Virus record (IMG/VR): IMGVR_UViG_3300017747_005082
Coordinates: 73,618 to 137,617 of that record
Direction: 5' to 3' (one strand)
DNA from: a virus
Taxonomy: Duplodnaviria; Heunggongvirae; Uroviricota; Caudoviricetes
DNA length: 64,000 bases
Shown: positions 12,217-35,379 of the stretch, piece after piece
Layout of the letters: each line of letters starts with the position of its first letter
How positions within the stretch are numbered: position 1 is the stretch's first letter
The notes under the pieces: model-generated
The model's input: only the letters and a program-made list of their open reading frames with translations
Database searches by the model: none
What the model was told of the DNA's origin: nothing
Position numbers and translations under genes: made by a program

Positions 12217-12263
12217 AACTAATTAATTTTGATTTAACAATTGAATTTTTTAAAATTCTTATA

Positions 12264-12277: not shown

Positions 12278-13220
12278 ACAAATTTACTAAGAATCACTTA
12301 ATCACTCATAAAGTTTTATTAAAATTAAATTATATTGATTTTCTAAGTACTAAAAGTTTTTCGTTTGGTTTTAATTCTATATCTTTGGACTTAACAAAAG
12401 ATAAAAATGAATCTTTTATTGTTGGAAATACCCAACTTCTTAAATCATCAGGAAATTCACTACAATAATCTTTAAAAACATACTCATTATTTTTCCCAGG
12501 TCTCAAATTTCTAATACCCCCTCTTATAATATTTTTACAATCAAATGTTATTTCCTTTTCGGATGCGATGCCTAGTATTTCCATTCCAAGAAGTGAAACC
12601 GACTTATGTTTGCATATATTATTCAAACTGTCCTTATAAAACAACGCATTTCCAAAATTTGCCTTCTCAAAGCTATGTGTCTCTATTGGCATTACCACAA
12701 CAAATATATTTGGTATTATTTCTTTCATAAGATTTTATTAATTTCTTTATCTTCAAAATATTGTTTTATTAAATTATTTTTATAATTATATATTATTCCA
12801 ATATAAATAAACAAAAATCCAATATCTAAAGAAGGTGGACTCCAACTATTTGTTTTAATTAAATTAGTATTTAATACCATATAAGGTAAAAGACTTAAAC
12901 TATTAGGATTTAAATGAAATCCAAAGATAAAATGAGCTATTGTAAAAGATATATAATAATAATCTTTTTCTTTGGTTTGTTCTATAATTAGCCATTGGCT
13001 CTCAAATAATATTTTATACATTTTTATTAATATTTAATAAATATCGTCATCTGAGCTGTCACCATTAAATATAGTATAAAATACACCATATAAACAAGCT
13101 AATGTTGCTGTAATAATTATTCCTATAAACAAATAAACCCACAAATTAAAATAACTAAAAATAAATAATAATAATATAAATATTATCATTGCAATCAAAG
13201 GTTTCTTATGTTTTTCCATT

Positions 13221-15390: not shown

Positions 15391-15954
15391 TTATTTAATT
15401 AAATTTTTTAATTTTTCAAAATGTTTTTTATCTTGAGGAGTACCAGCCCAATTAATAAGCTCGAACCAACGAATCATATCCTCATCAGATACCTTTTGAT
15501 CAAAATACTCATAAACAATATTAAAACGTAAATCACAACCCCAAATTGATCTTTTTAATTCAGAATCAAAATCATTATAAAAATATTCATTTCCTTTAAA
15601 TAGAATAGGGAATTCATTATTCATAAAGGCTTGAATAGTTGAAAGTCTTTGCTTACCATCAATAATTTTAAAGATTTTATCTTGCTCTAATTTTAATTTA
15701 CCTTTCTGATCATCTTCATAGACAATTGCAGCAAATCGTGGAAGTAATATTCCCTTAATGATTGATATGATTAATTCTTGTTTTTGTTGAAGTGTCCAAA
15801 CAAAATCTCTTTGTAAAGAAGTTCCATCTGATAATCGAACATCATAATCAATTTTATAACCATAATTACGTTCAAAAAAGTAAGAAGGTTGATAAGATAC
15901 TTCTTGACGAATATCTAAATTGATTGGTTTTACTATATCTCTAAATTTCAACAT
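15391..15954 (-). CDS. DUF262-like (ParB/GmrSD N-terminal nuclease-fold) protein (187 aa)
   Basis: IIDGKQRLSTI matches the DGQQR signature of the DUF262 / ParB-like NTPase-nuclease domain. Confidence 0.5.
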   Translation of the reverse strand: MLKFRDIVKPINLDIRQEVSYQPSYFFERNYGYKIDYDVRLSDGTSLQRDFVWTLQQKQELIISIIKGILLPRFAAIVYEDDQKGKLKLEQDKIFKIIDGKQRLSTIQAFMNNEFPILFKGNEYFYNDFDSELKRSIWGCDLRFNIVYEYFDQKVSDEDMIRWFELINWAGTPQDKKHFEKLKNLIK

Positions 15955-17067: not shown

Positions 17068-17349
17068 AAAAACAAGATTCTAGAAAACATTATATTCTCT
17101 TGTATCATTATTTTTATACTCACTAGTAGGAGCCAATTTTTCTAAAGATGAATCATACAAACGTACTAAATTGTTTGTTTTATCATCTCTACACCAAATA
17201 GTTCCATCATCATCTTGGGTGAGATCATTTAACTGTGTAATTACTGATACACCTCCACTAGATAGACATCTCACTTTTTTTACACTAGCAAAATGTTTTC
17301 TGATATCGTTTAATGTTTTCATAAATATAAAATATTTTTAGCCACCAAA

Positions 17350-17393: not shown

Positions 17394-17855
17394 TTATTCT
17401 TGTCCTCCAATAGCACTTACCAATTTCTTGAAGAACATTTCTTTTTGATCTTCTTGAGAAAGGAATTTTGTTGCTTCTTCTTCAAGAGCTTTGTATTTAT
17501 CCAACTCTTCTTTATGAGTAATAATTTGAATTCTCAAATTAATATCATGTTTCCAATCCGAAGCAGTACCTCCATCAAGAACGAATTCTGGGAATGTATC
17601 TACTCCAAGATCTTTTGCAGCTGCTGCATAAGCTTCAGATCTACCTTTAACTGATGAATAAGCTTTGATCAAATTATCCACTTTTGTTTCAGTATTGATA
17701 TCACCAAATCCTGATAGCTTTCCAGCTGTTTTGAATTTTGTTGTTTCAATCCCTTTGAATGATTTGATTTTTTCCTTAATCATTTCTAATACATCAGGAA
17801 TTGAACCTGTGAATTGACCTGCTACAGAAACCGCGTTTTCTTTTTGTGTTGACAT
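17394..17855 (-). CDS. hypothetical Ala/Lys/Glu-rich protein (153 aa) on its own promoter-terminator unit
   Basis: Promoter motif 17928-17941; terminator hairpin 17350-17372 straight after the stop. Confidence 0.55.
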   Translation of the reverse strand: MSTQKENAVSVAGQFTGSIPDVLEMIKEKIKSFKGIETTKFKTAGKLSGFGDINTETKVDNLIKAYSSVKGRSEAYAAAAKDLGVDTFPEFVLDGGTASDWKHDINLRIQIITHKEELDKYKALEEEATKFLSQEDQKEMFFKKLVSAIGGQE

Positions 17856-18158: not shown

Positions 18159-18420
18159 TTAAAAATTAATAATCCAAATTTCTTTTTAAAAAATTTCATA
18201 AATTGGATTTACTAATTTTATTTTACTTGTTGGTATATTCCACCCAAATCCCTTTTCACAAATACCTCCACAATCATGATTCTTTTCATGTCCTTTATCC
18301 CATTTTACTGATATGTAGTTATTTTTTGTTTTATTACAGTACCATAATCACCTACATTTAAATGATTATACTCTGATATTACTTCTATACGATCTCCTGT
18401 TTTAAATTCTCCTTCCATAA

Positions 18421-18711
18421 CTAATATATTTCATATGTTGTAGTTATTTCAATTACATTGAAGGGTTTATTTAATTTATCATATTCAAGAATTTCTTGAG
18501 GAGTAGCATACCTCCAATCATTAAGACCTTTCACACTGGAGAAAGATTTGTTATAAAGATGAGCTTGGAAACCATTATTTGTAGAACCATTAATATCTTT
18601 ATAAACTTTTAAATAATTATCATCACATCTTTGTTTATAACAAAAATTTAATTTAAAACCTATACTTTCCAATCCTTTTAAGATTACAATATATTCTCCC
18701 TTTTTAAACAT
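18421..18711 (-). CDS. YEIY-family small protein (...TTTYEIY)
   Basis: C-terminal tail; homologous to 27470..27766 (NDWRYA(T/S)PQEI.EYDK). Confidence 0.55.
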   Translation of the reverse strand: MFKKGEYIVILKGLESIGFKLNFCYKQRCDDNYLKVYKDINGSTNNGFQAHLYNKSFSSVKGLNDWRYATPQEILEYDKLNKPFNVIEITTTYEIY

Positions 18712-18974
18712 AATTTTATATTTTATTTTAAATATTCTATTAAATTAGTTTTTAAATTTAATACCATATCATTTCCAATCATAATACATGGTTTTCCCGC
18801 AATAATCACTTGTTTACCATTATGTTTTTCTTTTTTAATGGTATTATACATAGATGAAGAATCCTCACAATATATACGTTGTTTTTTAATCGCCATCAAG
18901 TAATTTCTTTAATTTTGCCTCTGTTTCCTCTATCTTTTTATAGATAATTTCCAACATTTCTAATATCCCCATAA

Positions 18975-19268
18975 CTAATATATTTCATAATTATTTTTTA
19001 TGATATCTTCATATGGTATAAATTTATCTTCTTTTAAACAAGTATTATACCATAATTTTTCTTCATAAGTGGCTTCCCTTAATTTATATTTACTAGGGTT
19101 TCGATAACTACTACCACTCCAACTTTGAATACTAACACGTAATACACATTTATCACCAATAATATCATCATTATCCCCAATATGAGAAAAGCGGATTAAA
19201 TATTCATATTGAGTTTTATGAAAATAAATTTCTCCAGGAATTAAATCTTCTATTTCAATATATGTCAT
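18975..19268 (-). CDS. YEIY-family small protein (...NNYEIY)
   Basis: C-terminal tail; LIPGEIY and R.AT.EEK.W motifs shared with neighbours. Confidence 0.55.
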   Translation of the reverse strand: MTYIEIEDLIPGEIYFHKTQYEYLIRFSHIGDNDDIIGDKCVLRVSIQSWSGSSYRNPSKYKLREATYEEKLWYNTCLKEDKFIPYEDIIKNNYEIY

Positions 19269-19545
19269 AACTTTCTACTTTAGGTAATTTTTCATAAGAT
19301 ATATAATCATTTATCTCAATACAATAATTTAACCATCTTTTTTCTTCATCAGTAGCTAATCGAATAGTACTTCCACTTTCACTATTTATATAACCTGTAT
19401 CAAAATATGATATTTTTGTATTTATAAAATATTTTCCGCATGCCCTTTTTTCATTATAATGAGTAAATAAAAAAATATATTCATTTTTAGATTCTTCATA
19501 TTTCTGACAATAAATTTCTCCAGGAATTAATTCAGTATATTTCAT
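19255..19545 (-). CDS. YEIY-family small protein (...ESYDIY)
   Basis: C-terminal tail; 14-nt overlap with the next gene, whose ATG lies inside the TATGAC tail codons. Confidence 0.55.
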   Translation of the reverse strand: MKYTELIPGEIYCQKYEESKNEYIFLFTHYNEKRACGKYFINTKISYFDTGYINSESGSTIRLATDEEKRWLNYCIEINDYISYEKLPKVESYDIY

Positions 19546-19547
19546 AA

Positions 19548-19775
19548 TTAATATATTTCGTATGTATTTTCTACTTTTGTTAAATATTCCCTAAAAACCC
19601 ACCAACAATAACCATCTTTTCCTCTTCCATCACCATTATGAAAATGAGAACGATATTCATCAAATTCAATTAATAAATTATTTTCATCATCAAATAATAC
19701 AGTCCCAATTCCACTTCTAATATCACCATTTCGGTATACTCTATCACCAATTTCAATTTTATTAATAGATTTCAT
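19548..19775 (-). CDS. YEIY-family small protein (...NTYEIY)
   Basis: C-terminal tail. Confidence 0.55.
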   Translation of the reverse strand: MKSINKIEIGDRVYRNGDIRSGIGTVLFDDENNLLIEFDEYRSHFHNGDGRGKDGYCWWVFREYLTKVENTYEIY

Positions 19776-19995
19776 ATGAAAATGGATTTATTGGATATCT
19801 TTCATAAAATTCTTCAAATTCTCCATTAGATATTTTACTCCAAAAACTATATCCTTCTTCTGTTCTATTCCAATGAAAATTTTTATCACCTGTTCCAAAA
19901 TCTAGTGATACATTTTCATTGGGAGTATTTCCAGCTTCAATTTGTTTTTCAAATACTTTTTGTTTAATCTCATAGGGTAAATCTTTTACTTGCAT
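19762..19995 (-). CDS. YEIY-family small protein (...FSYEIY)
   Basis: C-terminal tail; promoter motif 20028-20041. Confidence 0.55.
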   Translation of the reverse strand: MQVKDLPYEIKQKVFEKQIEAGNTPNENVSLDFGTGDKNFHWNRTEEGYSFWSKISNGEFEEFYERYPINPFSYEIY

Positions 19996-20027
19996 AATTA
20001 AATTTCTTAAAATAATTGAATTTATTC

Positions 20028-20041
20028 TGTAAATATACGAA
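20028..20041 (-). promoter_or_regulatory. conserved promoter-like motif
   Basis: tgtaaatatacgaa upstream of 19762..19995. Confidence 0.5.
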
Positions 20042-20063
20042 CTATAATTTATAAAGAAAATTC

Positions 20064-20624
20064 CTAATATATACTATATAAAGATGTTTCTAGATTTTCT
20101 TTTTTAGATATTATTTTTAGATAACTTCCTTTTTTATATTCTTCTCTTACCACAAGATTAGCTCCACATAATATTTGAACCTGATCACCATCTATTCCTG
20201 TTACAATACCTTCATCCCCAAATTCCATTATATAATTTTCATCAAATTTTAATTTAGAAGATGTACAATGACCTCTAACTGTAGCTTGTACTCTATCACC
20301 AATATTATATCCAAATGAAGATGATGAAATAATTCCACATCCTAAAGTTTTAAGAGAAATATCTTCATCTATATTTTCATAAACTTCTAAAAATTTACCT
20401 TTTCTATTTTCGCATCTAGTAACAAATTTATTATCTTTTGTTAAAAGTATTTCAGTATAATATCCTGATACTCCAGTAATAATACCTTTTTCTCCTTCCC
20501 TCATAGGTCTTTCATGTTTAAGGGATGAATTTGTACTACCCCCAGTAACAGTGGCAAATACTTCTTGTCCTATTTTATATCCATGTGTAGATGGTGATAC
20601 CACCCCACTTCCTTTCTTATCCAT
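20064..20624 (-). CDS. YEIY-related protein with internal tandem domain duplication (...LYSIY)
   Basis: Two ~80-aa repeats (G(Y/H)(K/N)IG(Q/D)(E/R)V.ATV.G...SS.LK...); tail Y-S-I-Y. Confidence 0.5.
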   Translation of the reverse strand: MDKKGSGVVSPSTHGYKIGQEVFATVTGGSTNSSLKHERPMREGEKGIITGVSGYYTEILLTKDNKFVTRCENRKGKFLEVYENIDEDISLKTLGCGIISSSSFGYNIGDRVQATVRGHCTSSKLKFDENYIMEFGDEGIVTGIDGDQVQILCGANLVVREEYKKGSYLKIISKKENLETSLYSIY

Positions 20625-21010
20625 ATTAAAGTTGGGTTATTTGTTCAGTTAATATTTTTACAGTATTATTATAATGAGTTTTAAATATATCAATATTTAT
20701 TTTACCAGTTTCATTATTTTCGATAATCCATTTTAGCACCTTAATTTCTAAGGTATCTTTATACTCAATTTTATCCATTTTCAATAAAAGACTTTCTAAA
20801 CTAGTTTTGGAAATATTAAACCATGATGTTATAATTTGGGGATAATCAGTATGGATTTGAATAATTTTTAATTTATAGAGCTCTCCATTACTCATAAATT
20901 GGGGTAAAAGTAAAGTTAACTTTGAACCATTATATTCTTGATAAGCAATATTTTCTTCAGGAATATTTAATTCAACATTCTTAACTAATACTTTAGAATA
21001 CTCATATTTA

Positions 21011-21463
21011 TCAATTTTTATTTTCATCTTTTACAATTTCAATTAATTTTTCTAGACAAGCATGTCTTGCTTCTTCATAAGAATTTACTACTTGATAAAA
21101 AGGTTTTTCTATATAAGGATGTCCATCAGCAATACCTATCCAATGATTTAATATTTCACCATAACCGCTGTATCCATTTTCTTCACACCCAATTGACCAT
21201 GAATATAGTAATCTATCTCCTATTTTATCAGGATTATATCTTGGAAGTATTTCAGCGTGTAAATTATATTTCTCTCTAAACCAATCAAAAGCCTGTTGCC
21301 ATAGTGGTGCTTTAACAATATCACTTAAAGGTTCTCCAAATGTTCTATTGTTAATACCTCTCATTACAAATTCACCTCTTAGATATTCAGCAAGACAACG
21401 TTCATCAAATCCTAAATCTTTTAGGTCTGAAGATAATGTGGAAGGTACAAATTGTTTTTCCAT
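21011..21463 (-). CDS. MKEQ mosaic-family protein, copy 2 (150 aa); paralog of 51685..52086
   Basis: [12 protein letters not shown](E/K)K and [14 protein letters not shown](V/I)K blocks; about 50 nt of near-identical DNA at the 3' end. Confidence 0.6.
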   Translation of the reverse strand: MEKQFVPSTLSSDLKDLGFDERCLAEYLRGEFVMRGINNRTFGEPLSDIVKAPLWQQAFDWFREKYNLHAEILPRYNPDKIGDRLLYSWSIGCEENGYSGYGEILNHWIGIADGHPYIEKPFYQVVNSYEEARHACLEKLIEIVKDENKN

Positions 21464-21466
21464 AAT

Positions 21467-21745
21467 TTAATATATTTCGTAATTATTTCCTTTTTCATCA
21501 TTTGACCAAATTCCTTTCTCATATATAACAAACCTTCCATAACCAGTACTATATAAGGTATCTGTTTCTTTATTATATCTAAAACTACCTCCAAATATAG
21601 CATATTCTTTTTTATAATTACTACCATCAATTTCTTTTATACTATCTCTTAATGCAATAAAGTTCTCACCTGTTTTAAATCTTTTATATCCTTCTTTATA
21701 TAATGGATGAGAATTATCTATATATGGAAAACCAAAATAACTCAT
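21467..21745 (-). CDS. YEIY-family small protein (...NNYEIY)
   Basis: C-terminal tail. Confidence 0.55.
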   Translation of the reverse strand: MSYFGFPYIDNSHPLYKEGYKRFKTGENFIALRDSIKEIDGSNYKKEYAIFGGSFRYNKETDTLYSTGYGRFVIYEKGIWSNDEKGNNYEIY

Positions 21746-21747
21746 AA

Positions 21748-21999
21748 TTATGCTATATTAATTATATTACCATTTTTATCTTCAACAATAGTAACATCAA
21801 ATTTTTTATCCAAATGCTCAAAAATCGGACCTGGAATGAATTGTAATGCTAATGAAAAAGCTTGTGCGAATTGTTGTCCACTTACACATTCTTTTTCTAA
21901 ATCTCTATTTTGTAAATAGTATTGGTAAAACCAATTTAGATCAAATTTAAAACCTTCTTTCAAAGAATTTCTTCTCATTTGAATATATTGCTCTCTCAT
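21748..21999 (-). CDS. hypothetical protein (83 aa)
   Basis: ORF track. Confidence 0.45.
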   Translation of the reverse strand: MREQYIQMRRNSLKEGFKFDLNWFYQYYLQNRDLEKECVSGQQFAQAFSLALQFIPGPIFEHLDKKFDVTIVEDKNGNIINIA

Positions 22000-22002
22000 A
22001 AC

Positions 22003-22314
22003 TTAGTATATTTCGTAATTATTTTTAATTTGTTTATCAAAATGGATAAATTCATTTTCTTGAATACAATATTTTAACCAATTTATTTCATCCTCAGTAG
22101 CTTTTCTAAGATTTTCTCCTGGTAAATTAAAAAAAGACATACTATTACCTTTAAGAAAACACCTTTTACTTTTAGGAAATATAGCATATAGATAAGTAAT
22201 TAGAGGTCCTTGTATTTCAAAAAATTGAAAAATAATAGGATAAAATTTACTACCAGATAGAAAAGATCCATAATAATATTCATTTTTAATCATTTCATGA
22301 TTCCCTACATCCAT
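22003..22314 (-). CDS. YEIY-family small protein (...NNYEIY)
   Basis: C-terminal tail; LRKATEDEINWLKYCI motif. Confidence 0.55.
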   Translation of the reverse strand: MDVGNHEMIKNEYYYGSFLSGSKFYPIIFQFFEIQGPLITYLYAIFPKSKRCFLKGNSMSFFNLPGENLRKATEDEINWLKYCIQENEFIHFDKQIKNNYEIY

Positions 22315-22316
22315 AA

Positions 22317-22604
22317 CTAATATATTTCGTATGTTTGTGAATTATTCTCTAATCTTTCTAACATTTCTTTAAATGTCAAAGGTATTGCAATATTATCTAT
22401 TGAAAAAGAAAATTGTAATTTATAATCTTTGCGATCCCATCCCCAACCATTTCCTAAAGAATTTTCACTCATTTTCCATCCAACGGAAGAAGGATAACCT
22501 AATTCAATTAATTTTTTTCTAATTATATTTCTTTCTTCTAAGGTAGAATTATCACTAGACATTCCTTCCCCAGTTTTAAATTGATATAGATTATTTTTTA
22601 ACAT
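22317..22604 (-). CDS. YEIY-family small protein (...QTYEIY)
   Basis: C-terminal tail. Confidence 0.55.
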   Translation of the reverse strand: MLKNNLYQFKTGEGMSSDNSTLEERNIIRKKLIELGYPSSVGWKMSENSLGNGWGWDRKDYKLQFSFSIDNIAIPLTFKEMLERLENNSQTYEIY

Positions 22605-22971
22605 TTTCTAAAATTTTATCAAGAATATTATATTTTCGATCAAAAATTCGATCAATTTTTTTAGTAGTATTAGTAGAGATAATAATTTTAACTCTAGTTA
22701 TAACCTTTTCTAAAACTTTATCATTAACTTCTATATTAATAATATCTTTAGTATTAACTAATAATGCTTTTGTGGGAGTTAATATTAAATCATAATGAGA
22801 TAATGGATTTGATACAACATAACGATTTAATAAAGGATCACTATCAGCAACAGAATTATTATTAATAATATGACCTATAATTATTTTATAACCTTGAATA
22901 TCTGTTTCAGTAATTTTAGTTCTAAAACATCTTTTGGTTTGGTTTTTTAATCTATTTAAATATTTATTCAT
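22591..22971 (-). CDS. hypothetical protein (126 aa)
   Basis: ORF track; promoter motif 22990-23003. Confidence 0.5.
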   Translation of the reverse strand: MNKYLNRLKNQTKRCFRTKITETDIQGYKIIIGHIINNNSVADSDPLLNRYVVSNPLSHYDLILTPTKALLVNTKDIINIEVNDKVLEKVITRVKIIISTNTTKKIDRIFDRKYNILDKILENVKK

Positions 22972-22989
22972 AACCTTAATTTTATATTT

Positions 22990-23003
22990 TGTAAATATAC
23001 GAA
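22990..23003 (-). promoter_or_regulatory. conserved promoter-like motif
   Basis: tgtaaatatacgaa upstream of 22591..22971. Confidence 0.5.
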
Positions 23004-23019
23004 TTATAATTTATAAATC

Positions 23020-23352
23020 CTAATAAATATCATAAAGTATATTATTTCCATTATATATCATTATTTCTTCAAGTGTAGCTTCTCTAAAATGATCAAGATG
23101 AGGAAACCAATAATAGTTATTAATATCTGATTTACATAAATTATGAAATTCATAATAAAAATGACCAGGATAAACTTCTGATGGTTGTTTAAGTGTAATT
23201 TTACATATACAATTTTTGAAAGAATTCATACTATGATTGAAATTCTGATTACTAGAAGTTATAACAACTATATCTCCGATATTATATTCTTTTTTCATAA
23301 CTTTTTTATTATTAAGACACATAAATAAGGCCAAATTAAAATTAAGACACAT
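23020..23352 (-). CDS. YEIY-family small protein (...ILYDIY)
   Basis: C-terminal tail. Confidence 0.5.
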   Translation of the reverse strand: MCLNFNLALFMCLNNKKVMKKEYNIGDIVVITSSNQNFNHSMNSFKNCICKITLKQPSEVYPGHFYYEFHNLCKSDINNYYWFPHLDHFREATLEEIMIYNGNNILYDIY

Positions 23353-23452
23353 CTATCAAAATATGTTAATTTTACCTGTCTTTTTGAAATAGATTCACTT
23401 ATACTTGTAATTATTATACCAATAATTATATATGTTATAAAATATACCATAA

Positions 23453-23713
23453 TTAATAAATTTCATAGATATTGTCTTCCAATATTTCTAATATATTTCT
23501 AATTCCTCTATGATATGCAATATTTTCCATTTCTGTAGCTAATCTCCAAGTATCTACATTATCAGTAACTTTTCCTGATTTATACCTGAAAGAAAATTTT
23601 GTAAAATCATCAACTACAAACATTTCCCCAATATTTCTAGCATCATCTACATATTTTAAAGAAACTAAAATATCACCTTCTTGATATTTATCCCAAAGTT
23701 TAATAGATTTCAT
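23453..23713 (-). CDS. YEIY-family small protein (...NIYEIY)
   Basis: C-terminal tail; WRLATEMENIAYH motif. Confidence 0.55.
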   Translation of the reverse strand: MKSIKLWDKYQEGDILVSLKYVDDARNIGEMFVVDDFTKFSFRYKSGKVTDNVDTWRLATEMENIAYHRGIRNILEILEDNIYEIY

Positions 23714-23734
23714 ATAATTCGTTTTTAAATTCTT

Positions 23735-24181
23735 CTAATGTTTTAAATCTCCACATACTCCTACTTTTTTTATTATTTTTAAATGGTTGGATATATAAGT
23801 ATCTTGGGAAAATAAAGTATTACAAACTAAAAATTCTGAATTTTTAGGGATAATACATTCATAAATAGAATAATTTGTAATCTTTTTATGTTGAATAAAC
23901 CTATATAAACTTGGTAAACTTATAAAAGAAGAATACCCTCCTTTTATATTTACCCCATAATTATCACGACTCCAAATACAAATTGTTCTTTCTTTTTGAG
24001 GAATGTTAATTAAATATAAATTATTAGATGTAGATTTAATTATTCCAGGAATTTCTGTTTCTTCAAATAACTTATAACATATAATATTTTTCCTATTTAT
24101 TTTTACTTTTAATTTGGGAGTTATATTAAATATTCTTTGGAATAAATTCTTTTTAATATCTTCATTAAGTATTTTTTTCAT
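23735..24181 (-). CDS. hypothetical protein (148 aa)
   Basis: ORF track. Confidence 0.45.
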   Translation of the reverse strand: MKKILNEDIKKNLFQRIFNITPKLKVKINRKNIICYKLFEETEIPGIIKSTSNNLYLINIPQKERTICIWSRDNYGVNIKGGYSSFISLPSLYRFIQHKKITNYSIYECIIPKNSEFLVCNTLFSQDTYISNHLKIIKKVGVCGDLKH

Positions 24182-24183
24182 AA

Positions 24184-24435
24184 TTAATAAATTTCGTATA
24201 TATTTGTATCCTCTTCAAAATGTTTTACTGCAAAATATCTAACTCCGTTTTCACCCTTAGGCCATAATATTATATCATCCCCTCCAAAATCTTCTAAGGT
24301 ATCAATAATAAACTTTTTACCAGGGAAATAACCTGCTCCAGCCCTTTTAAGTTGGTCTTTATTTTGAGACAATTGATCTAACTCAATACATATAACAGTA
24401 TCTCCTTTTTTGAAATTATGTTTCATGATTTTCAA
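24184..24435 (-). CDS. YEIY-family small protein (...NIYEIY)
   Basis: C-terminal tail; terminator-promoter cassette 24444-24475 upstream. Confidence 0.55.
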   Translation of the reverse strand: MKIMKHNFKKGDTVICIELDQLSQNKDQLKRAGAGYFPGKKFIIDTLEDFGGDDIILWPKGENGVRYFAVKHFEEDTNIYEIY

Positions 24436-24443
24436 TTTATATT

Positions 24444-24475
24444 CGTAAATATACGAAAGGCCTCTTAAGAGGCCT
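24444..24475 (-). promoter_or_regulatory. terminator-promoter cassette: motif cgtaaatatacgaa (24444-24457) fused to hairpin AGGCCTCTTAAGAGGCCT (24458-24475)
   Basis: Near-identical cassettes at 35617-35647 and 61313-61344. Confidence 0.55.
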
Positions 24476-24593
24476 AATAATTTTAATAAATCGTAATTTT
24501 TGGTTTTTGTGAAACATTTTTAAGTTTCAACCATTCCATTAAGTTTTGAACTTTGCTTTTGTTACTTGTTTTGCTCATTTTATTTTATATTAA

Positions 24594-24857
24594 TTAATAA
24601 ATTTCATATATTTTATTATAATTTATAATATCTACTTCTTCAAAAAATGATTTATTAAAATTACCCTTATATCTATTTCCTTCAGGGAAAAAATAAAAAT
24701 CACTATTATAAGTTCCTTTTATATTTGCCCAAGTTATATCTCCTACTTTCATATTTTCAGGAAAATGTGATTTATAATCTCCTTCATATGGTTTAATTAA
24801 TTTTATCCATATAATTTCTCCTTTTGGAGGATAATATTTATATTCTTGATTATTCAT
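24594..24857 (-). CDS. YEIY-family small protein (...KIYEIY)
   Basis: C-terminal tail. Confidence 0.55.
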   Translation of the reverse strand: MNNQEYKYYPPKGEIIWIKLIKPYEGDYKSHFPENMKVGDITWANIKGTYNSDFYFFPEGNRYKGNFNKSFFEEVDIINYNKIYEIY

Positions 24858-25956
24858 AATCTTCTCTTGCTATATTAATAATTTTGGGAAATCTTAAAGA
24901 TAAATCTGAGGTTTTTTCAAAATATTTACAAGTGCATGTTTTTCCTATTAGATTTTCTCTATCCCTCCATACTTCTTCTAGATATTGCATAGTACCATTT
25001 ATAGTAGCGTCTACTTTTATCCCATCTTGTGTTGTAAATGAAATTGTTGCTGCTTTGTTAGCAAATTTTCCAATACCTTCATTTATATTTTCAATTATAA
25101 ATTCCTCATCAAAAAATTCCTTATGTTTTAATAATCCTTTAGATCGTTTAGATTCATATAAAGAATCCAAAACTCTTAACATTTGTCCCTCATAGCCTTC
25201 GAAAATATATTGAGCTAATTTTTCTTGTAATTCTTCTTTATTATTGACTATTTCATAACCCACTAATACTAATTCAGGGATATCATTAATTATAGAACGT
25301 AATATATTAATTCGTTCCATATAAACATAATCATTTCCATCAAAATTAGGTATATCATAAACATAATATTTGATATATTGTTTAGATAAATCTAAATCTA
25401 TTAAATTAGGTTTAGTTTTTCTTACACAAGATACTATTGTATTAAAATCACAAGTATCTTTTTCAGCATATAATTCCCCATCAAGAACTAAATCAGGATA
25501 TTTTTCAAATAAAGGTTTTAATGCCTCATTTATATGAGGAGCAGATATAATTTCTTTTCCATTTCGTGAAAATACTCCATTTATATGACTAATGGCTCTA
25601 ATTCCATCTAATTTTTTACTTGAACCTAAAGGATATTTAATTTTTTCTTTAAGGAAATCTTTTGCAAGCATAGGTTCAAAAAATACTTTTTTATCACAAT
25701 CATTAATATCTTCCCAATATCCTAAAGACTTTCTTTTAGTCCAAAGAGCCTTGGCTTCTGCTAATGCTTGTTCTTCAATAGTAGTAGCATTCTTTTTCCC
25801 AATATTTTTTTCTGAACATTTAGTCCAATCTCCAGTAAATAATTTCATTCCTACAAATCCTGTTATAGTTCTAAAGCTATCTCCTTCGATTTCTATTTCC
25901 CATTGGTTTATATGATCTTTAGAATTACTTCTTTTATAAAGTATTGGTAATTTCAT
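24850..25956 (-). CDS. ATP-dependent DNA ligase (368 aa)
   Basis: Nucleotidyltransferase motif I KLDGIR (KxDGxR), LDGELY, FEGYEGQMLR and LLKHK (motifs III-V); size matches T7-type ligases. Confidence 0.75.
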   Translation of the reverse strand: MKLPILYKRSNSKDHINQWEIEIEGDSFRTITGFVGMKLFTGDWTKCSEKNIGKKNATTIEEQALAEAKALWTKRKSLGYWEDINDCDKKVFFEPMLAKDFLKEKIKYPLGSSKKLDGIRAISHINGVFSRNGKEIISAPHINEALKPLFEKYPDLVLDGELYAEKDTCDFNTIVSCVRKTKPNLIDLDLSKQYIKYYVYDIPNFDGNDYVYMERINILRSIINDIPELVLVGYEIVNNKEELQEKLAQYIFEGYEGQMLRVLDSLYESKRSKGLLKHKEFFDEEFIIENINEGIGKFANKAATISFTTQDGIKVDATINGTMQYLEEVWRDRENLIGKTCTCKYFEKTSDLSLRFPKIINIAREDYE

Positions 25957-25961
25957 TTATA

Positions 25962-26237
25962 TTATTTAATTATTATAGTTCCTTCTTTTATACCATATGG
26001 AGACTTCTCTTGAAAATAATTTATTCCTGTTATAGTATCTTTGGTTAGAATCCATAATGAAGTTTCTTTCCAAGTTACTGTTATTAAAGTATGATTTTTC
26101 TTTAATTTTACCTCTTCAGTCCCTCCCCAATTTCTTGCTCTTTCATTATCAGTACAACTGTATATAAATAATATACTTAATAATATTAAAAAAATATTAA
26201 TATATTTCATAATTTGAAATTTTTGTTGTTTTTTCAA
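25962..26237 (-). CDS. small secreted/membrane-anchored protein (91 aa)
   Basis: N-terminal hydrophobic segment ending ...IYSC. Confidence 0.4.
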   Translation of the reverse strand: MKKQQKFQIMKYINIFLILLSILFIYSCTDNERARNWGGTEEVKLKKNHTLITVTWKETSLWILTKDTITGINYFQEKSPYGIKEGTIIIK

Positions 26238-26478
26238 TTTTGCAGGGATTTGAATTTTCTTGTATCATTTTTTCAAATTCCTCTCCAGATATCATTAATT
26301 CAATATAAGGTTCAGAACTATCCATTTCCAAACACATCACTTTTCCCTCTATTACTCCATAGTAAGAGCTTAATAAAGCATTCCAATTAAAAGAATGGTT
26401 ATAATTTTTATTTATAAAATTTCTTACATATTGGAAATTCTTATCACCAAAACTCACTAAAAAATTATTCTTATCCAT
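26197..26478 (-). CDS. YEIY-family small protein (...SNYEIY)
   Basis: C-terminal tail. Confidence 0.55.
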   Translation of the reverse strand: MDKNNFLVSFGDKNFQYVRNFINKNYNHSFNWNALLSSYYGVIEGKVMCLEMDSSEPYIELMISGEEFEKMIQENSNPCKIEKTTKISNYEIY

Positions 26479-26480
26479 AT

Positions 26481-26705
26481 TTAATATATTTCATAATTAT
26501 TTTCAGGTAAAGATATTATACTATAATGAATTTGATTATTTAAATATGCACAAATTTCAATAATTGTATGATCATAATATACAGTTCCGTCTTTTTTTAA
26601 CAGATCAACTGTTTCTAAGTTTTGTGATTTTGGAAATAAAATTTCATAAGTTTCATGTTTATTTCCAAATTTTATACCTATAATTTCTTGTTGAGTAGTA
26701 TACAT
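26481..26705 (-). CDS. YEIY-family small protein (...NNYEIY)
   Basis: C-terminal tail; promoter motif 26724-26737. Confidence 0.55.
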   Translation of the reverse strand: MYTTQQEIIGIKFGNKHETYEILFPKSQNLETVDLLKKDGTVYYDHTIIEICAYLNNQIHYSIISLPENNYEIY

Positions 26706-26723
26706 AACTAATATTTTTATTTA

Positions 26724-26737
26724 TGTAAATATATGAA
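26724..26737 (-). promoter_or_regulatory. conserved promoter-like motif
   Basis: tgtaaatatatgaa upstream of 26481..26705. Confidence 0.5.
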
Positions 26738-26744
26738 TTTTAAA

Positions 26745-27278
26745 TTATAAATCCAAATAAGATTTGATAATTTTTACTTGTTTTCTTAGTTTTGTTTCGT
26801 ATTTTTTTGTTATCGCATATCTTCTTTTGGAACAGTTAACAAAATTATTGAGGAGTTTTGTTAATGAAGAACAGGATAAATAAGAGGATGCTATTATAAA
26901 ATAATAGGCTTCAACCCCCTCTTTTATTGAATTATATTTTACGTAACCTTTTTTACTATTAATAGAATATGGATTATTTTTCTTTTTTCCTACTCCTTCA
27001 TTTCCTAATGATGTTTCAATTATTGCTTGTGATATTGCCAATTCATAAGGAACAATAATATCAAGTGAATCATAAACCTTTATTGCATTATCATACAAAT
27101 CTTCTGCTGTTATTTGTGATTTTGGATAATGTTCTAATATTCTTGCAGAATTATAATAATAGGTACTATCAATTTGACTATAAGTTTTAAATGAACAAAA
27201 CAATATAAATAATAACAATATTTTTCTCATATTAATAAATTTCGTAAATATTCTCTTTTTGGGAAACCAATCCCTCAT
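26745..27278 (-). CDS. secreted glucosaminidase-like peptidoglycan hydrolase (177 aa)
   Basis: Signal peptide MRKILLLFILFCSFKTYSQ; ISQAIIETSLGNEG resembles the FlgJ/glucosaminidase AQAALESGWG motif. Confidence 0.4.
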   Translation of the reverse strand: MRDWFPKKRIFTKFINMRKILLLFILFCSFKTYSQIDSTYYYNSARILEHYPKSQITAEDLYDNAIKVYDSLDIIVPYELAISQAIIETSLGNEGVGKKKNNPYSINSKKGYVKYNSIKEGVEAYYFIIASSYLSCSSLTKLLNNFVNCSKRRYAITKKYETKLRKQVKIIKSYLDL

Positions 27279-27492
27279 TATCTATAAATAATATTATATC
27301 TGTTGTAACATGCCAATTTCTTTGATATTCCCTTCCAGGTACAAGAACTTGAATATTATAAACACAATCATTAAAACTTTCCATATTAGATATTATACCA
27401 ATATCCCCAATCTGATTACAGCTATATGAATCATTTTTTATAATTTTAACTTTATCTCCTATTTTATATTCAATATATCTCATATCTGTCAT
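27232..27492 (-). CDS. YEIY-family small protein (...ENIYEIY)
   Basis: C-terminal tail. Confidence 0.55.
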   Translation of the reverse strand: MTDMRYIEYKIGDKVKIIKNDSYSCNQIGDIGIISNMESFNDCVYNIQVLVPGREYQRNWHVTTDIILFIDNEGLVSQKENIYEIY

Positions 27493-27766
27493 AACTGGTA
27501 GTTATTTTAGTTACATCAAAAGGTCTGTTATTTTTATCATATTCTTGGATTTCTTGGGGAGAGGCGTATCTCCAATCATTTCTTTGGGATTTATCAAATG
27601 GAAGTATACTCCATCCATTTTCTCCTCCTTTAGCATCGTTTTCTACAGTTAAATAACTACTATCATAAGATATTTTATAACAAAAATTTATAGGAAAATT
27701 TACATCCTTTGGATGTTTGGAAGATAAAAGTACTATATAATCTCCTTTTTCAAATTTATTTTTCAT
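27470..27766 (-). CDS. YEIY-family small protein (...DRYEIY)
   Basis: C-terminal tail; homolog of 18421..18711. Confidence 0.55.
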   Translation of the reverse strand: MKNKFEKGDYIVLLSSKHPKDVNFPINFCYKISYDSSYLTVENDAKGGENGWSILPFDKSQRNDWRYASPQEIQEYDKNNRPFDVTKITTSYDRYEIY

Positions 27767-27777
27767 AAATCAGCGTA

Positions 27778-28044
27778 TTATTCACCAGGTCTTTTTTTAC
27801 TCACCCAGTTATGTTCAATTATAGAGTTTGGCGTTATATTCGCTTTTACTAATTTATTAGTACCATATTTGTATATAGGACCAATATATTCTTTTTCATT
27901 AATTCTTCTTTTATATGAAGAAGAACGAAATTCACGAGCAGTTTGTCTATACCACCCATTTAAATTGGGAATAAATGATTCTAAATTAGCCGCAGTTTCA
28001 AAATCATATATTAATTTTTCGGTATTACCTGTTTTTTCTTTCAT
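27778..28044 (-). CDS. hypothetical protein (88 aa)
   Basis: ORF track. Confidence 0.45.
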   Translation of the reverse strand: MKEKTGNTEKLIYDFETAANLESFIPNLNGWYRQTAREFRSSSYKRRINEKEYIGPIYKYGTNKLVKANITPNSIIEHNWVSKKRPGE

Positions 28045-28332
28045 TTAATATATTTCGTAATTTTCCATAATATTCCCATTATCCCCGTAAAGAATTAAAT
28101 TTTTTAAATCTTGAAAAGAATAAAATTCACGTATTTCAGATAAATTACAAGATCCCCAAACTATACCAGTTTTAGTATCCCAAAACATAAACACAAAATC
28201 AGTTTTATCCCCATAACAATATGTAGGTTGAGCACAATGATAATTTTTTATCATTAATTCCCAAATCTCTCTTTTTTCTGATGGAGTTGCTTTTGGATCT
28301 AAACCATCACCTTCTTTAAATTGGTATTTCAT
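28045..28332 (-). CDS. YEIY-family small protein (...ENYEIY)
   Basis: C-terminal tail. Confidence 0.55.
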   Translation of the reverse strand: MKYQFKEGDGLDPKATPSEKREIWELMIKNYHCAQPTYCYGDKTDFVFMFWDTKTGIVWGSCNLSEIREFYSFQDLKNLILYGDNGNIMENYEIY

Positions 28333-28334
28333 AT

Positions 28335-28634
28335 TTAATATATTTCGTATGTTTTGTTAATTTTATCAAATGTTTTATTAATTGATTCTTCAGAAATATA
28401 TTTTCCTTTAGCCTCACAAGACTCTAACCAAAATTTTTCAAATTCACTAGATTGATATATTTTATTCCAACTATGAGTTGCATCTTTTTCAAATTTTTTC
28501 CTAACAATTCGTGATTCATAATGTAAAGTACTGTTATATTTTGCTCTCCATATAAAATATTCATTATTGTCTATTGAAGTATAAATTTCTCCTTTTCTTA
28601 TTTCTCCTACAGTTATTTTAATTCTATTTACCAT
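28335..28634 (-). CDS. YEIY-family small protein (...KTYEIY)
   Basis: C-terminal tail. Confidence 0.55.
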   Translation of the reverse strand: MVNRIKITVGEIRKGEIYTSIDNNEYFIWRAKYNSTLHYESRIVRKKFEKDATHSWNKIYQSSEFEKFWLESCEAKGKYISEESINKTFDKINKTYEIY

Positions 28635-28873
28635 ATATCATAAAAATTATCTTGTTCTAAATCAATCTCTAAATCTATAGGCCTATATGAATTATTTGAA
28701 CCATCTTCCCAATCCACATAATAATAAAAATAGTCAGGTTTTAATTTATAATGCTTTTCAGATACTTTTCTTACTACTCCTACCATTGGAACTCCATTTC
28801 CATCTAATCCTTGATCTTTATATTCTGACTTCAGATTTATCCTAACTTTTTGTCCTTGTTGTAAATATTTCAT
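28628..28873 (-). CDS. YEIY-related small protein (...FYDIW)
   Basis: Variant tail Y-D-I-W. Confidence 0.45.
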   Translation of the reverse strand: MKYLQQGQKVRINLKSEYKDQGLDGNGVPMVGVVRKVSEKHYKLKPDYFYYYVDWEDGSNNSYRPIDLEIDLEQDNFYDIW

Positions 28874-29469
28874 TATTGTTTTATATTTGGTCTAAAACTT
28901 GTTATTTTGTCAAATCCTTTATTTTCCAATTTTTGTATATCAGATAAACTATCATTTCTTCCTTGTTCACTATCAACTTGTTCAGCTAACCAAGTAATTA
29001 ACCATTGATAAATTTCTTCTGCAGGAATAAATGAAGCCAAATTTAGTTTAGATAAATTAGGATATTTACTTAAATTTAATTTACTTCCCTCTAATTGCTC
29101 TCCATAATGATTAACCAATAATATTGGACAATTATATAATTTATTATAGTAATTATTTGGAATAGGAGCCATTTCAACTAAACTAAATAATCTTCCTCCT
29201 TTTTCATCTATTCTTACTTTATTTTTATTTGCTTTATAATTCCAACTAGTTGAAGGTACTTTATAACCAATTTCTAATAATTTACGTCCATAATAAAATA
29301 CTCCATTTAATTCATAACCTTCAACTTGATAACCAGCTATAAATAAAATAATATGTTTATAAACATATTCTCCTCCATTATCTCTTCTATCTAAAATTAA
29401 TTTAGGATCTTCTCCATAAATACCTCGTAGATAATCATAATAATCTTTATATTTGGATAATATTTTCAT
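28873..29469 (-). CDS. hypothetical protein (198 aa)
   Basis: ORF track. Confidence 0.5.
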   Translation of the reverse strand: MKILSKYKDYYDYLRGIYGEDPKLILDRRDNGGEYVYKHIILFIAGYQVEGYELNGVFYYGRKLLEIGYKVPSTSWNYKANKNKVRIDEKGGRLFSLVEMAPIPNNYYNKLYNCPILLVNHYGEQLEGSKLNLSKYPNLSKLNLASFIPAEEIYQWLITWLAEQVDSEQGRNDSLSDIQKLENKGFDKITSFRPNIKQ

Positions 29470-29480
29470 AACCTTTTATT

Positions 29481-29729
29481 TTAATATATTTGATATATAT
29501 CTATATTAAATTTTGAAATATTAGAAGTATTTATTAAAGTAGTTAAATCCCATCCATAATCTCCTGCTTTCATTGCTATATAATCTTCATCATTATATAG
29601 ATCTTCTATTATACATTCAAATGGAAAAATACATTCATCTAAAGGATTATTTTGACATAATCTAGAAGCCCAATGGGTAGGTTTTATTCCAATAAGGATT
29701 TTATCTCCAATTTTAAATTGATGTTTCAT
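29481..29729 (-). CDS. YEIY-related small protein (...IYQIY); N-terminus MKHQFKIGDKILI like 35126..35377
   Basis: Variant tail; shared N-terminal block; promoter motif 29750-29763. Confidence 0.5.
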   Translation of the reverse strand: MKHQFKIGDKILIGIKPTHWASRLCQNNPLDECIFPFECIIEDLYNDEDYIAMKAGDYGWDLTTLINTSNISKFNIDIYQIY

Positions 29730-29749: not shown

Positions 29750-29763
29750 AGTAAATATACGAA
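29750..29763 (-). promoter_or_regulatory. conserved promoter-like motif (variant agtaaatatacgaa)
   Basis: Upstream of 29481..29729. Confidence 0.45.
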
Positions 29764-33844: not shown

Positions 33845-34168
33845 TTAGTAGATTTCATAAGACAAATTTTTAATTCTTGAAAATGGAATAAATCTTCCTA
33901 ATTCAATACATTCTAGTAACCATTGTTTTTCTTCCCAAGAAGCTATTTCAAATCTTCTGTCTTTAGAAGCATAACACCAACTTCTATTATGATAAAATAT
34001 TCTTTCTGAGGATATAAAAGTCGCGTTTCCTCTTTGATTAAACTTATCATTATCTCCATTATTAGGGATAAGAACTTTTCCAATCATCCAAAAATTTTCA
34101 CCTTCACTTGGATCAGTTATTTTATAAATTTCACCTTCAACTAATTTATGTAATTTCATATATTCCAT
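33845..34168 (-). CDS. YEIY-family small protein (...LSYEIY)
   Basis: C-terminal tail; SWEEKQWLLECIE motif. Confidence 0.55.
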   Translation of the reverse strand: MEYMKLHKLVEGEIYKITDPSEGENFWMIGKVLIPNNGDNDKFNQRGNATFISSERIFYHNRSWCYASKDRRFEIASWEEKQWLLECIELGRFIPFSRIKNLSYEIY

Positions 34169-34892
34169 TGTTTAGAGAATTCCTGTTTATATTTTCCACA
34201 AGGACATATCCATCCTTCCAAAGTAGCTGTTAATATTCCTTCATTATCTTTATTATATTCTATAATTTCTCCATTTTGTCTTTTATTATAAGATAATTGT
34301 CTTTTACATTCCTTAATATCAGATGGAGAACAACAAGTATAAGGATGATATGATCCCCTTTCTTGTTGCTTATTCATAAAATCTATTGTTTCTTGTGTAG
34401 TTATTTTTTTCATTTTAAAATATACTCTTCATTCCATGTAGACTTTTTTGTTTTACTATCTATCCAACCCCAAGTTTCTCTTGCCTTATTTAAATCTTTA
34501 TCAGAATAATATAAGTACCATAATATCATTTCCCAATAAGTATCATCTCTTTTCAAATCAGGACTTCTGTAAAAGATACAAAATTGCCATTTAAAAAAGA
34601 AAATTATAAAAGAAGGATTCCATTCATGTCTTGGGCTATTATATTTATCTTTCCAACCTAATCTCCCTTGATGAATAAATATAGGAGTTCCATAAGATAT
34701 ATTAAAACCTAAAAAATTAAAACTATTATTTCTATTATATTTTATTTTTTCTTTTTTTATTTGTAATATAGTAGGATTAAATTTTCTAGGATACATATAA
34801 GGTGTACCATATTGTAATTCTCCAAAATAGTATTGTTTTTTTGGAGATTTAAATATATTTTTAATATATTTTATTTCAGATTTCTTCATAAC

Positions 34893-35123
34893 TTAATAAA
34901 TTTCTTCCTCTTTTTCTTTACCACAATTCCTGCATTTATAATAATTAATATTCCAAGAACCTCTTATTCCAAATCCTAAATCTCCAGTCCTACCTTTACT
35001 ATTATAATTAAAATACCAATCATGTGTTTTATTTTTAATACATGGTTCTTCTTTTAAACTTATAAATATCCCAATTATGGATATTATAAATAAAATTAGA
35101 GGTCCTATTATTAATATTTCCAT
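34893..35123 (-). CDS. small membrane-anchored protein with a partial tail (...EEEIY)
   Basis: N-terminal TM segment; EIY terminus. Confidence 0.4.
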   Translation of the reverse strand: MEILIIGPLILFIISIIGIFISLKEEPCIKNKTHDWYFNYNSKGRTGDLGFGIRGSWNINYYKCRNCGKEKEEEIY

Positions 35124-35125
35124 AA

Positions 35126-35377
35126 TTAATAAATTTCATACATCATTAAATTATTTTCATAAAGTTCTATATCGTTTATGCTAAAAGAACTTGCTCTTTC
35201 ATCTAAACGAGTTCCTAATACCACTTCATCATGTCTGGTAATATCTGAAATAAAACAAAAATCTTGGTCTTCAGGTAAATATCGTATTAGGGCACAAGCT
35301 GTTAGAGAAATTTCAGTGTCTTTTGTTTTTTGAGTTGGAATTTTTACTTTGTCCCCAATTTTAAATTGATGTTCCAT
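35126..35377 (-). CDS. YEIY-family small protein (...MMYEIY)
   Basis: C-terminal tail; MEHQFKIGDKVKI N-terminus. Confidence 0.55.
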   Translation of the reverse strand: MEHQFKIGDKVKIPTQKTKDTEISLTACALIRYLPEDQDFCFISDITRHDEVVLGTRLDERASSFSINDIELYENNLMMYEIY

Positions 35378-35379
35378 AT

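Follow-up and report, generated by a model that had tools for sequence, protein, structure and literature searches.

Why should so many small and otherwise dissimilar proteins of one phage end in the same four residues? This question is raised by a 64,000-nucleotide stretch of DNA (positions 73,618 to 137,617 of the IMG/VR virus record IMGVR_UViG_3300017747_005082, Caudoviricetes), referred to here as the window, in which 26 intact minus-strand open reading frames (ORFs) of 68-110 amino acids (aa) terminate in Y-[E/D/Q]-I-[Y/W]-stop, compared with about 0.01 expected from composition. The tail is interpreted here, with confidence a little above even, as a C-terminal short linear motif whose free carboxylate is needed for its recognition by a single partner, one that co-evolves with it and is probably phage-encoded. 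The window, with a G+C content of 23-29%, carries genes for a family-B DNA polymerase (split into two pieces), a clamp-loader subunit, GroEL, GroES, an ATP-dependent ligase, thioredoxin, and several glycosyltransferases, a gene content that points to a large, uncultured T4-like or related myovirus.

Census and anatomy of the tail

Twenty of the 26 intact tails read YEIY. Within the set of longest non-overlapping ORFs with ATG starts (n = 144), which spans 91% of the window and lies almost entirely on the minus strand, 25 members carry the tail (19 YEIY, 3 YDIY, 2 YQIY, and 1 YDIW); the 26th tail gene, 27232-27483 (...NIYEIY), was left out of this set solely for its overlapping neighbour. Away from protein ends, only three matches to this pattern exist among 19,453 residues, and between 16.8 and 35.6 kb the tail is present on 24 of 51 genes. 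At the nucleotide level, the 15-mer TAYGAAATHTAYTAR occurs in 20 copies where 0.08 would be expected, all on the minus strand and all in frame at ORF ends. Besides the intact set, two relics (18186-18418 and 23700-23756) and two looser variants (20064-20624 and 47975-48949) were found. The original prediction, which was based on the letters of the stretch alone, had placed the array at 18421-29729 with outliers at 8154, 16822, 33845-35595, and 49171; all of these coordinates were confirmed, and the motifs that it quoted (MK.QFK.GD, LIPGEIY, and WR.AT.EE) are found in the sequences. Its figure of at least 27 members holds only when looser or decayed cases are added to the intact ones, while the absolute conservation that it ascribed to the tail has to be relaxed, as position -3 may be E, D, or Q and one final residue is W.

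In a sample of 68 tails, the motif forms the last four residues in every case, with Y at -4 in 68, E at -3 in 59 (otherwise D, Q, or T), I at -2 in 66, and Y at -1 in 67, and a polar linker of the form [E/N]-[P/N]-[N/T/S/I] lies directly ahead of it. The carriers are acidic, with a median isoelectric point of 5.1 versus 7.2 for other small ORFs. All 26 tail proteins lack a transmembrane-like hydrophobic segment, which, together with their acidity, makes the suggested role in secretion unlikely.

The tail ORFs and related genes are listed below; class A denotes the family studied in depth, comprising the 18975, 19255, 22003, 28335, and 33845 ORFs.

8154-8360 (-), tail ORF, 68 aa, ...PYYDIY; tailed orthologs in L047 and L111
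16822-17067 (-), tail ORF, 81 aa, ...LNYEIY; its tail-less paralog 17080-17322 ends REYNVF
17394-17855 (-), 153-aa protein of unassigned function without a tail; sole tail-less gene adjoining arrays in all 10 related loci
18186-18418 (-), decayed or frameshifted SH3-like member, MEGEFKTGDRIEV... broken at an A6 run; the downstream frame ends ...NPIYEIF-stop
18421-18711 (-), tail ORF, 96 aa, ...TTTYEIY; one family with 27470-27766
18975-19268 (-), tail ORF, 97 aa, ...NNYEIY; class A, Sm/Tudor-like barrel plus helix; the protein modelled
19255-19545 (-), tail ORF, 96 aa, ...ESYDIY; class A; the next gene's ATG lies inside the tail codons (14-nucleotide overlap)
19548-19775 (-), tail ORF, 75 aa, ...NTYEIY; the family member in marine phage L129 has an IIRDKNLR tail
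19762-19995 (-), tail ORF, 77 aa, ...FSYEIY; motif F.W..T.EG..FW
20064-20624 (-), two-repeat protein, 186 aa, looser tail ...SLYSIY; the one-repeat L047 ortholog ends EPTYEIY
21467-21745 (-), tail ORF, 92 aa, ...GNNYEIY
22003-22314 (-), tail ORF, 103 aa, ...KNNYEIY; class A
22317-22604 (-), tail ORF, 95 aa, ...SQTYEIY
23020-23352 (-), tail ORF, up to 110 aa, ...NILYDIY; last gene ahead of a promoter-like motif
23453-23713 (-), tail ORF, 86 aa, ...DNIYEIY
23700-23756 (-), 18-codon relic, MWRFKTLEEFKNELYEIY-stop; follows 23735-24181 and overlaps the start of 23453-23713
24184-24426 (-), tail ORF, 80 aa, ...TNIYEIY; SH3-like N-terminus
24594-24857 (-), tail ORF, 87 aa, ...NKIYEIY; the L047 ortholog ends EPIYDIY
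26197-26478 (-), tail ORF, 93 aa, ...ISNYEIY
26481-26705 (-), tail ORF, 74 aa, ...ENNYEIY
27232-27483 (-), tail ORF, 83 aa from MRYIEYK, ...ENIYEIY
27470-27766 (-), tail ORF, 98 aa, ...YDRYEIY; residues 2-88 match an internal domain (84-168) of a 446-aa L008 ORF
28045-28332 (-), tail ORF, 95 aa, ...MENYEIY
28335-28634 (-), tail ORF, 99 aa, ...NKTYEIY; class A
28628-28873 (-), tail ORF, 81 aa, ...DNFYDIW
29481-29729 (-), tail ORF, 82 aa, ...IDIYQIY
33845-34168 (-), tail ORF, 107 aa, ...LSYEIY; class A
35126-35377 (-), tail ORF, 83 aa, ...LMMYEIY
35380-35595 (-), tail ORF, 71 aa, ...NNYEIYEIY, tail duplicated
47975-48949 (-), PD-(D/E)XK nuclease, 324 aa, ...NPFEIF; fits a loose aromatic-x-I-aromatic form, membership uncertain
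49171-49431 (-), tail ORF, 86 aa, ...KENYQIY; outlier within the replication module

The break in 18186-18418 is compatible with a pseudogene, an assembly error, or programmed slippage alike. The relic at 23700-23756, which retains a WR..T.EEF motif together with the tail and provides the next gene's ATG, is probably what remains of the 3' end of a tail gene that has been lost. A frameshift fusion of 23735-24181 to this relic was ruled out, as the L047 ortholog of 23735-24181 is tail-less.

Conservation and lineage-specific drift in other phages

Searching other phage and metagenome assemblies for ORFs ending in YEIY-stop, by a pattern scan of IMG/VR and an ORF census, revealed arrays on at least seven other contigs, relatives among them, with L047 containing 13 tail ORFs in 14 kb. 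True relatives include L047 and L016, whose untagged backbone genes are 35-62% identical to those of the window, and the tagged genes that intervene between them differ. When the tail-less gene 17394-17855 was used as an anchor to fetch relatives, eight loci were obtained (L146-L153), and all eight have arrays beside the anchor gene. The tail consensus is YEIY in L146, L147, and L149 (anchor identity 56-71%), N-Y-[QEKNS]-I-[YF] in L148 (52%), NN.Y.IF in L150-L152 (46-49%), and N..SIF in L153 (45%); the consensus drifts in concert within each lineage, with distance. On a separate 1.4-kb contig (L134), four unrelated consecutive ORFs end in IYELW, IYELW, IYELW, and IHELW, with synonymous codon differences.

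Tail carriage is a stable family-level trait across phages: tagged families have the tail in every phage (8/8, 10/10, 5/5, and 3/3) and untagged families never do (0/10, 0/4, 0/4, and 0/4). The original prediction had named tail-less homologs in relatives as the observation that would speak against a tag; homologs in other phages keep the tail, and in cross-phage pairs within families the tail is 79% identical at a body identity of 26%. The ligase neighbourhoods of nine relatives are tail-free within 10 kb, which taken alone would suggest that relatives lack the tail, but the pattern scan and the loci anchored on 17394 show otherwise. The share of small early-region proteins that terminate in YEIY lies between a fifth and a half in this phage and in its relatives. 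A scan of 185,579 bacterial and archaeal species genomes (GTDB) found no arrays and chance single matches only.

A different shared tail was found in a phage of another type, represented by a 50.8-kb marine Tara contig (L129). At about 2500-12700 of this contig, some 14 small ORFs from several families end in (I/V)(I/V)R(D/P)K.LR or FKR.LR, the Arg codons being both AGR and CGN, and many gene pairs in this region have a constant spacing of 21-24 nucleotides. The L129 homolog of 19548-19775 can be aligned with it over the whole length as far as the tails, with 28% identity.

A proposed terminal motif read in trans

The occurrence of the tail on unrelated families, the flexible linker ahead of it, the strong purifying selection on it, and its lineage-wise change together support a terminal motif that would be read in trans. 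The general form of this motif would be aromatic-x-Ile/Leu-aromatic-COOH, with Y-E-I-Y as the version in this phage, joined through a polar linker to small, acidic, and soluble proteins of many unrelated kinds. One common trans-acting partner would bind the last four residues and the free carboxylate, and this binding would commit all tagged proteins to the same fate, which might be timed turnover, sorting, or recruitment to a hub. A single reader would serve all of them, and the strictly terminal position implies that the reader would require the free carboxylate. The reader is probably encoded by the phage rather than the host: the concerted change of the tag across unrelated proteins in each lineage suggests that it co-evolves with the tag, and host protease and clamp specificities are conserved while the tag drifts among related phages, which favours a phage-encoded, co-evolving partner. 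Timed turnover, hub docking, or self-association may be the outcome of tagging; proteolysis and an anti-defence or injected-effector repertoire, which the original prediction had offered, are candidate roles only.

The sole concrete candidate for the reader, and a weak one that may instead be a marker, is the 17394-17855 protein. Its family (144-158 aa in L128 and L146-L153) lies beside or within arrays and shows 38-67% identity (alignment A4), exceeding the conservation of the tagged genes; the window protein has no match in Pfam, PDB, or NCBIfam.

Several points weigh against this interpretation. Among the window proteins, no recognizable C-terminal-peptide-binding domain (such as PDZ or TPR) was found, and the shared fate of the tagged proteins is purely something that we infer. 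No co-variation with tail type was seen for the 17394 family, whose association with arrays could simply reflect a clade-conserved gene because the loci were fetched with 17394 itself. The concerted drift could also result from shared array ancestry together with recombination at near-identical junctions. Moreover, the analysis covers 64 kb of a 180-kb genome, represented by a metagenomic contig of 180,524 bp, plus fragments of relatives, and the closest polymerase match in cultured or GenBank records is at most 30% identical, indicating no close cultured relative. Attempts to extend beyond the window with its edge genes yielded short contigs only.

A broader version of the same idea, which is tentative and rather doubtful, is that in some phages a lineage-specific terminal peptide serves as a proteome-wide "postcode" directing much of the set of small early-region proteins to one phage-specified destination or machine and read by a co-evolving phage-encoded receptor. 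YEIY, YELW, and xSIF in the T4-like clade and IIR.K.LR in the unrelated marine phage would be examples.

Multi-domain homologs and self-association

When 1.84 billion representative proteins were searched with a class-A profile, 760 matches were obtained, not all of them tail-bearing. Among the best 150 of the 760, 79 are stand-alone proteins of about 100 aa, 43 of which end in Y[EDQ]I[YW] and most of the others in near variants (YELY, FEIY, YSIY, YEVY, YEIF, and HELW). Also in the best 150 are 72 multi-domain proteins of 226-1177 aa; none of these has a terminal tail, and no internal copy occurs in their 37.6 thousand residues. In these long homologs, class A stands in tandem fusion with other domain classes, ones that the window encodes as individual tagged ORFs. 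Word-indexed homolog searches with two tail proteins returned the queries themselves only.

Such fusions raise the possibility that the tail is a self-association sticker that works without a dedicated reader, the tails binding each other or a common barrel surface and thereby building non-covalent assemblies of the individual domain proteins, in imitation of the tandem multi-domain proteins found in other phages. Domain classes that are separate and tagged here are indeed joined elsewhere: P0008 consists of an [18421-like] domain followed by four class-A domains, P0012 of a [19762-like] domain followed by three, and P0007 of three class-A domains followed by an [LP.KW-like] domain. The N-terminal strand of class A (...GEIY) also resembles the tail, and mutual compatibility would account for concerted drift without a separate reader. 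This explanation is nevertheless unlikely, as one four-residue sticker per protein offers one binding site only, many tagged families are not class A and have no common surface, and in L129 both the small ORFs and a multi-domain protein carry the lineage tail, so that fusion does not replace tagging.

Peptide-level versus DNA-level constraint

Selection acts on the tail peptide and not on the DNA, as indicated by how the tail codons vary. Compared with the consensus TAT GAA ATA TAT, the 26 tails contain 23 synonymous and seven conservative non-synonymous changes (D, Q, and W), giving a crude ratio of non-synonymous to synonymous substitution rates (dN/dS) of about 0.05; the changes are almost all at third positions, and first and second positions are nearly fixed. 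The tails of other phages show a similar synonymous spread, and the constraint in both can therefore be attributed to the peptide. The first tail Tyr is particularly informative. It is encoded by TAC in 36% of tails versus 6.9% genome-wide (p = 3e-5), and TAT-GAA holds an out-of-frame ATG. TAC occurs at 10 of 17 junctions where a separate ATG follows just after the stop codon and at none of eight junctions that have an embedded ATG as the next start or are operon ends (Fisher p = 0.008). TAC is thus used only where TAT-GAA would create a competing ATG, so that the nucleotide has been altered to remove a start and the Tyr has been retained.

The converse proposal, that the 15-mer at gene junctions is itself the functional unit, as a DNA or RNA element of which the peptide is a by-product, appears very unlikely. 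In its variants, the element would be a recombination joint that shuffles gene cassettes, the translation-initiation region of the next gene, or a promoter-like box. The 20 near-identical 15-mers agree with this, as do the next gene's ATG embedded in the Tyr-Glu/Asp codons at six window junctions and in Leu-Trp at all four L134 junctions, and the relic at 23700-23756, where the tail is kept and the start of the next gene lies within it. Relatives show tail genes shuffled between conserved backbone genes, and the core ATATATT is common to the 15-mer and the promoter-like motif TTCRTATATTTAC. Against it, the variation is nearly all third-position and synonymous; the tail Ile uses ATA, ATT, and ATC without significant bias; all three stop codons occur after tails; and the bases after the stop are not conserved (TTATG, ATATG, ATG, or long gaps). 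Untagged genes in the same operons are coupled in the same way, including a 14-nucleotide overlap at 22591/22604, and orthologs retain the tail regardless of downstream context. A DNA-level repeat would be conserved irrespective of frame and located in non-coding DNA, and all 20 of the 15-mers are in frame at ORF 3' ends. The near identity of the 15-mer can be explained by strongly biased codon usage together with the conserved peptide. Of the two options left by the original prediction, a protein-level C-terminal motif and a DNA element that forces the tail, the first is borne out by the synonymous position of the codon variation, and the second is abandoned as a cause: the near-identical 15-mer may help recombination, solely as a by-product.

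Diversity of the carrier families

The tail is carried by many unrelated families, at least seven of them unrelated at profile level, rather than by the paralog array originally described. With tails trimmed, BLAST grouped the window tail proteins into small subfamilies and 16 singletons; pooling 19 loci gave 157 distinct tail ORFs, which formed 24 BLAST clusters and 56 singletons, and homology does not extend across all bodies as expected of a single paralog family. Searches of Pfam, PHROGs, and NCBIfam with the tail proteins, the multi-domain homologs, and 40 other window proteins gave nothing informative.

Descent from one ancient ancestor, with bodies diverged beyond recognition and the tail left as the most constrained patch, is nonetheless worth weighing. 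Many members resemble an SH3/Sm/Tudor-like barrel with a helix behind it that bears a T/S-x-E-E-F capping motif, and head-to-tail tandem arrays are typical of duplication. When the eight largest families were compared by hhalign without their tails, two proved related at profile level, whereas the other 27 of 28 pairs remained below 20% probability. Some architectures are also clearly different (F.W..T.EG..FW, LP.KW.I, and RFKT.EEF...GW), homologous domains within multi-domain proteins lack the motif, and the same family has a different tail in another phage lineage. Common descent is accordingly a poor prospect, and even if true, it would leave the freezing of the last four residues alone unexplained.

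A role in cis, in which the tail serves its own protein's fold or stability (as a hydrophobic cap or as protection against C-terminal proteolysis) or acts as a nascent peptide that tunes termination or re-initiation, is equally improbable: the tail directly precedes the stop codon in every case, tight coupling to the following gene is the rule among tail genes, and an AlphaFold model of 18975-19268 (mean predicted local distance difference test score, pLDDT, 87) places the tail at the end of the terminal helix and not in free coil, but the same four residues recur across at least seven unrelated families, the last seven residues are the stretch of lowest model confidence (average 66), the linker ahead of the tail is polar and Pro-rich, tails also occur without a coupled downstream gene (24594 and 23020), untagged genes are equally well coupled, and concerted change within a lineage is unexpected for independent cis roles.

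Genomic setting

The tail genes sit in operons behind a promoter-like motif that is confined to the small-ORF region. This motif, TTCRTATATTTAC, is present in 23 copies versus 1.4 expected, all of them intergenic and on the minus strand and 22 within 1-36 kb (for example, 24445-24457, 22991-23003, 20029-20041, 29751-29763, and 35617-35629). Its core TAnnTTTA resembles the -7 box of Bacteroidota promoters. Several copies come directly after a G+C-rich hairpin, and each of the three copies of the palindromic hairpin AGGCCTCTTAAGAGRCCT (24458-24475, 35630-35647, and 61327-61344; two identical and the third one base off) lies immediately upstream of the promoter-like motif. The T4-type late-promoter motif TATAAATA is not enriched in the window (44 versus 41 expected). 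With a promoter-like motif specific to the small-ORF region and no excess of late promoters, virion packaging appears to find no support.

Promoter-early stem-loop cassettes (PeSLs) have been described in the hyperplastic regions of T4-type phages (PMC2839356, PMC4122927). The hairpin and promoter composites of the window resemble PeSLs and probably mark early operons, which by analogy would imply early expression of the tail genes. Both settings feature small, variable genes in arrays that are reshuffled between conserved ones. Unlike PeSLs, which are intergenic non-coding DNA, the YEIY tail is coding and under amino-acid-level selection.

Likeness to known systems and implications

The closest systems in logic are peroxisomal targeting signal 1 (PTS1, -SKL) and KDEL, eukaryotic C-terminal signals with known receptors (Pex5 and the KDEL receptor) and membrane-bound destinations. 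They share with the YEIY tail the use of three or four strictly terminal residues on unrelated proteins and lineage-specific variants, and the tail matches them in being terminal in 68 of 68 cases, on unrelated families, with no internal copies in 72 multi-domain homologs. They differ in that the tail would function in a phage-infected bacterium, is unrelated in sequence, and has no receptor found in the 64-kb window.

Among bacterial signals, the ssrA tag ...YALAA, with ClpXP/SspB, and the SulA tail, with Lon, are C-terminal degrons read by AAA+ proteases, in which a short peptide with a free carboxylate likewise gives unrelated proteins a common fate. Tails such as ...ENNY-EIY superficially recall the ...ENY-ALAA of ssrA. 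However, ssrA-type recognition involves a non-polar LAA-like tripeptide, and the corresponding tripeptide here is E-I-Y or Q/D/S/N-I-Y/F; host protease specificity is conserved, whereas the YEIY tag drifts by phage lineage. Clamp-binding C-termini of T4-family phages reportedly include that of RB69 gp43 (...SLFDMFDF, said to have been described by Shamoo and Steitz in 1999) and the tails of T4 gp33 and gp55. They resemble the YEIY tail in belonging to related phages, in lying at the extreme C-terminus, and in their aromatic-acidic-aliphatic-aromatic pattern (F-D-M-F versus Y-E-I-Y), but if dozens of small proteins bound the clamp, they would be in competition with the replisome. The C-terminal polymerase fragment of the window (55618-56523) ends in ...SYITDYFNFS and not in Y-x-I-Y, and a clamp-binding tail was rejected on this ground. 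A PDZ ligand, with a hydrophobic P0 and with P-2 as its conserved specificity position, does not fit either: P-2 of the tail is the most variable position across lineages (E/Q/D/S/N/T/K), and the conserved ones are P-1 Ile and P-3 Tyr. Short peptides also direct diverse cargo into HK97-fold shells, the encapsulin cargo-loading peptide being C-terminal, as YEIY is, and the T4 capsid-targeting sequence N-terminal and cleaved. These sequences are unrelated to the tail, and the tail genes have the promoter-like motif of the small-ORF region, no late-promoter enrichment, and acidic products.

Full-text literature searches, both for the YEIY motif and for shared C-terminal motifs of phage early proteins, returned nothing relevant, and no prior description of a terminal recognition tag shared across a phage proteome was found, in agreement with the novelty originally claimed. 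Cultured and GenBank phages yielded no match, at the DNA or the protein level, to the array, to a class-A member, or to the 17394 protein.

Small phage genes form the largest pool of proteins without known function and are where factors for host takeover and anti-defence are chiefly sought. A tag on 20-50% of the small proteins of a phage would provide a sequence-only selector for a functionally linked set across metagenomes, already covering 157 ORFs in 19 loci, and the tail peptide offers a direct experimental handle as bait for the reader. If such a reader exists, this would be evidence that phages order their small proteins by means of a shared recognition code, one that co-evolves within each lineage. 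The different shared tail of the unrelated marine phage suggests that this principle may be general and can be searched for systematically, and if the "postcode" were true, it would amount to a viral version, within a bacterium, of PTS1/KDEL sorting.

Other features of the window

Among the genes of the small-ORF region are those for an HNH endonuclease, a NUMOD-domain protein, and a GmrSD N-terminal-like protein (sites 7623-8147, 36063-36752, and 15391-15954, all on the minus strand); NUMOD is a DNA-binding domain typical of homing endonucleases. A tRNA-like sequence of 59 nucleotides at 9556-9614 (-), seemingly without an anticodon arm, scores 43.8 bits with the Rfam tRNA model and is not called by ARAGORN; it sits in unusually long non-coding DNA (stretches 8900-9625 and 9833-10136). 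The phage-encoded GroEL and GroES homologs are located at 52324-53949 and 53965-54258 (-). The family-B DNA polymerase is split between 55618-56523 and 57592-59445 (-), with two genes in between (56534-56923 and 56932-57588). The first of these belongs to a group of four tail-less paralogs with N-termini like MKEQLI.FETAKLA (902-1468, 21011-21463, 51685-52086, and 56534-56923, all on the minus strand), two copies of which, including this one, lie in the replication region; homologs of the family are present in L016, L099, and L100.

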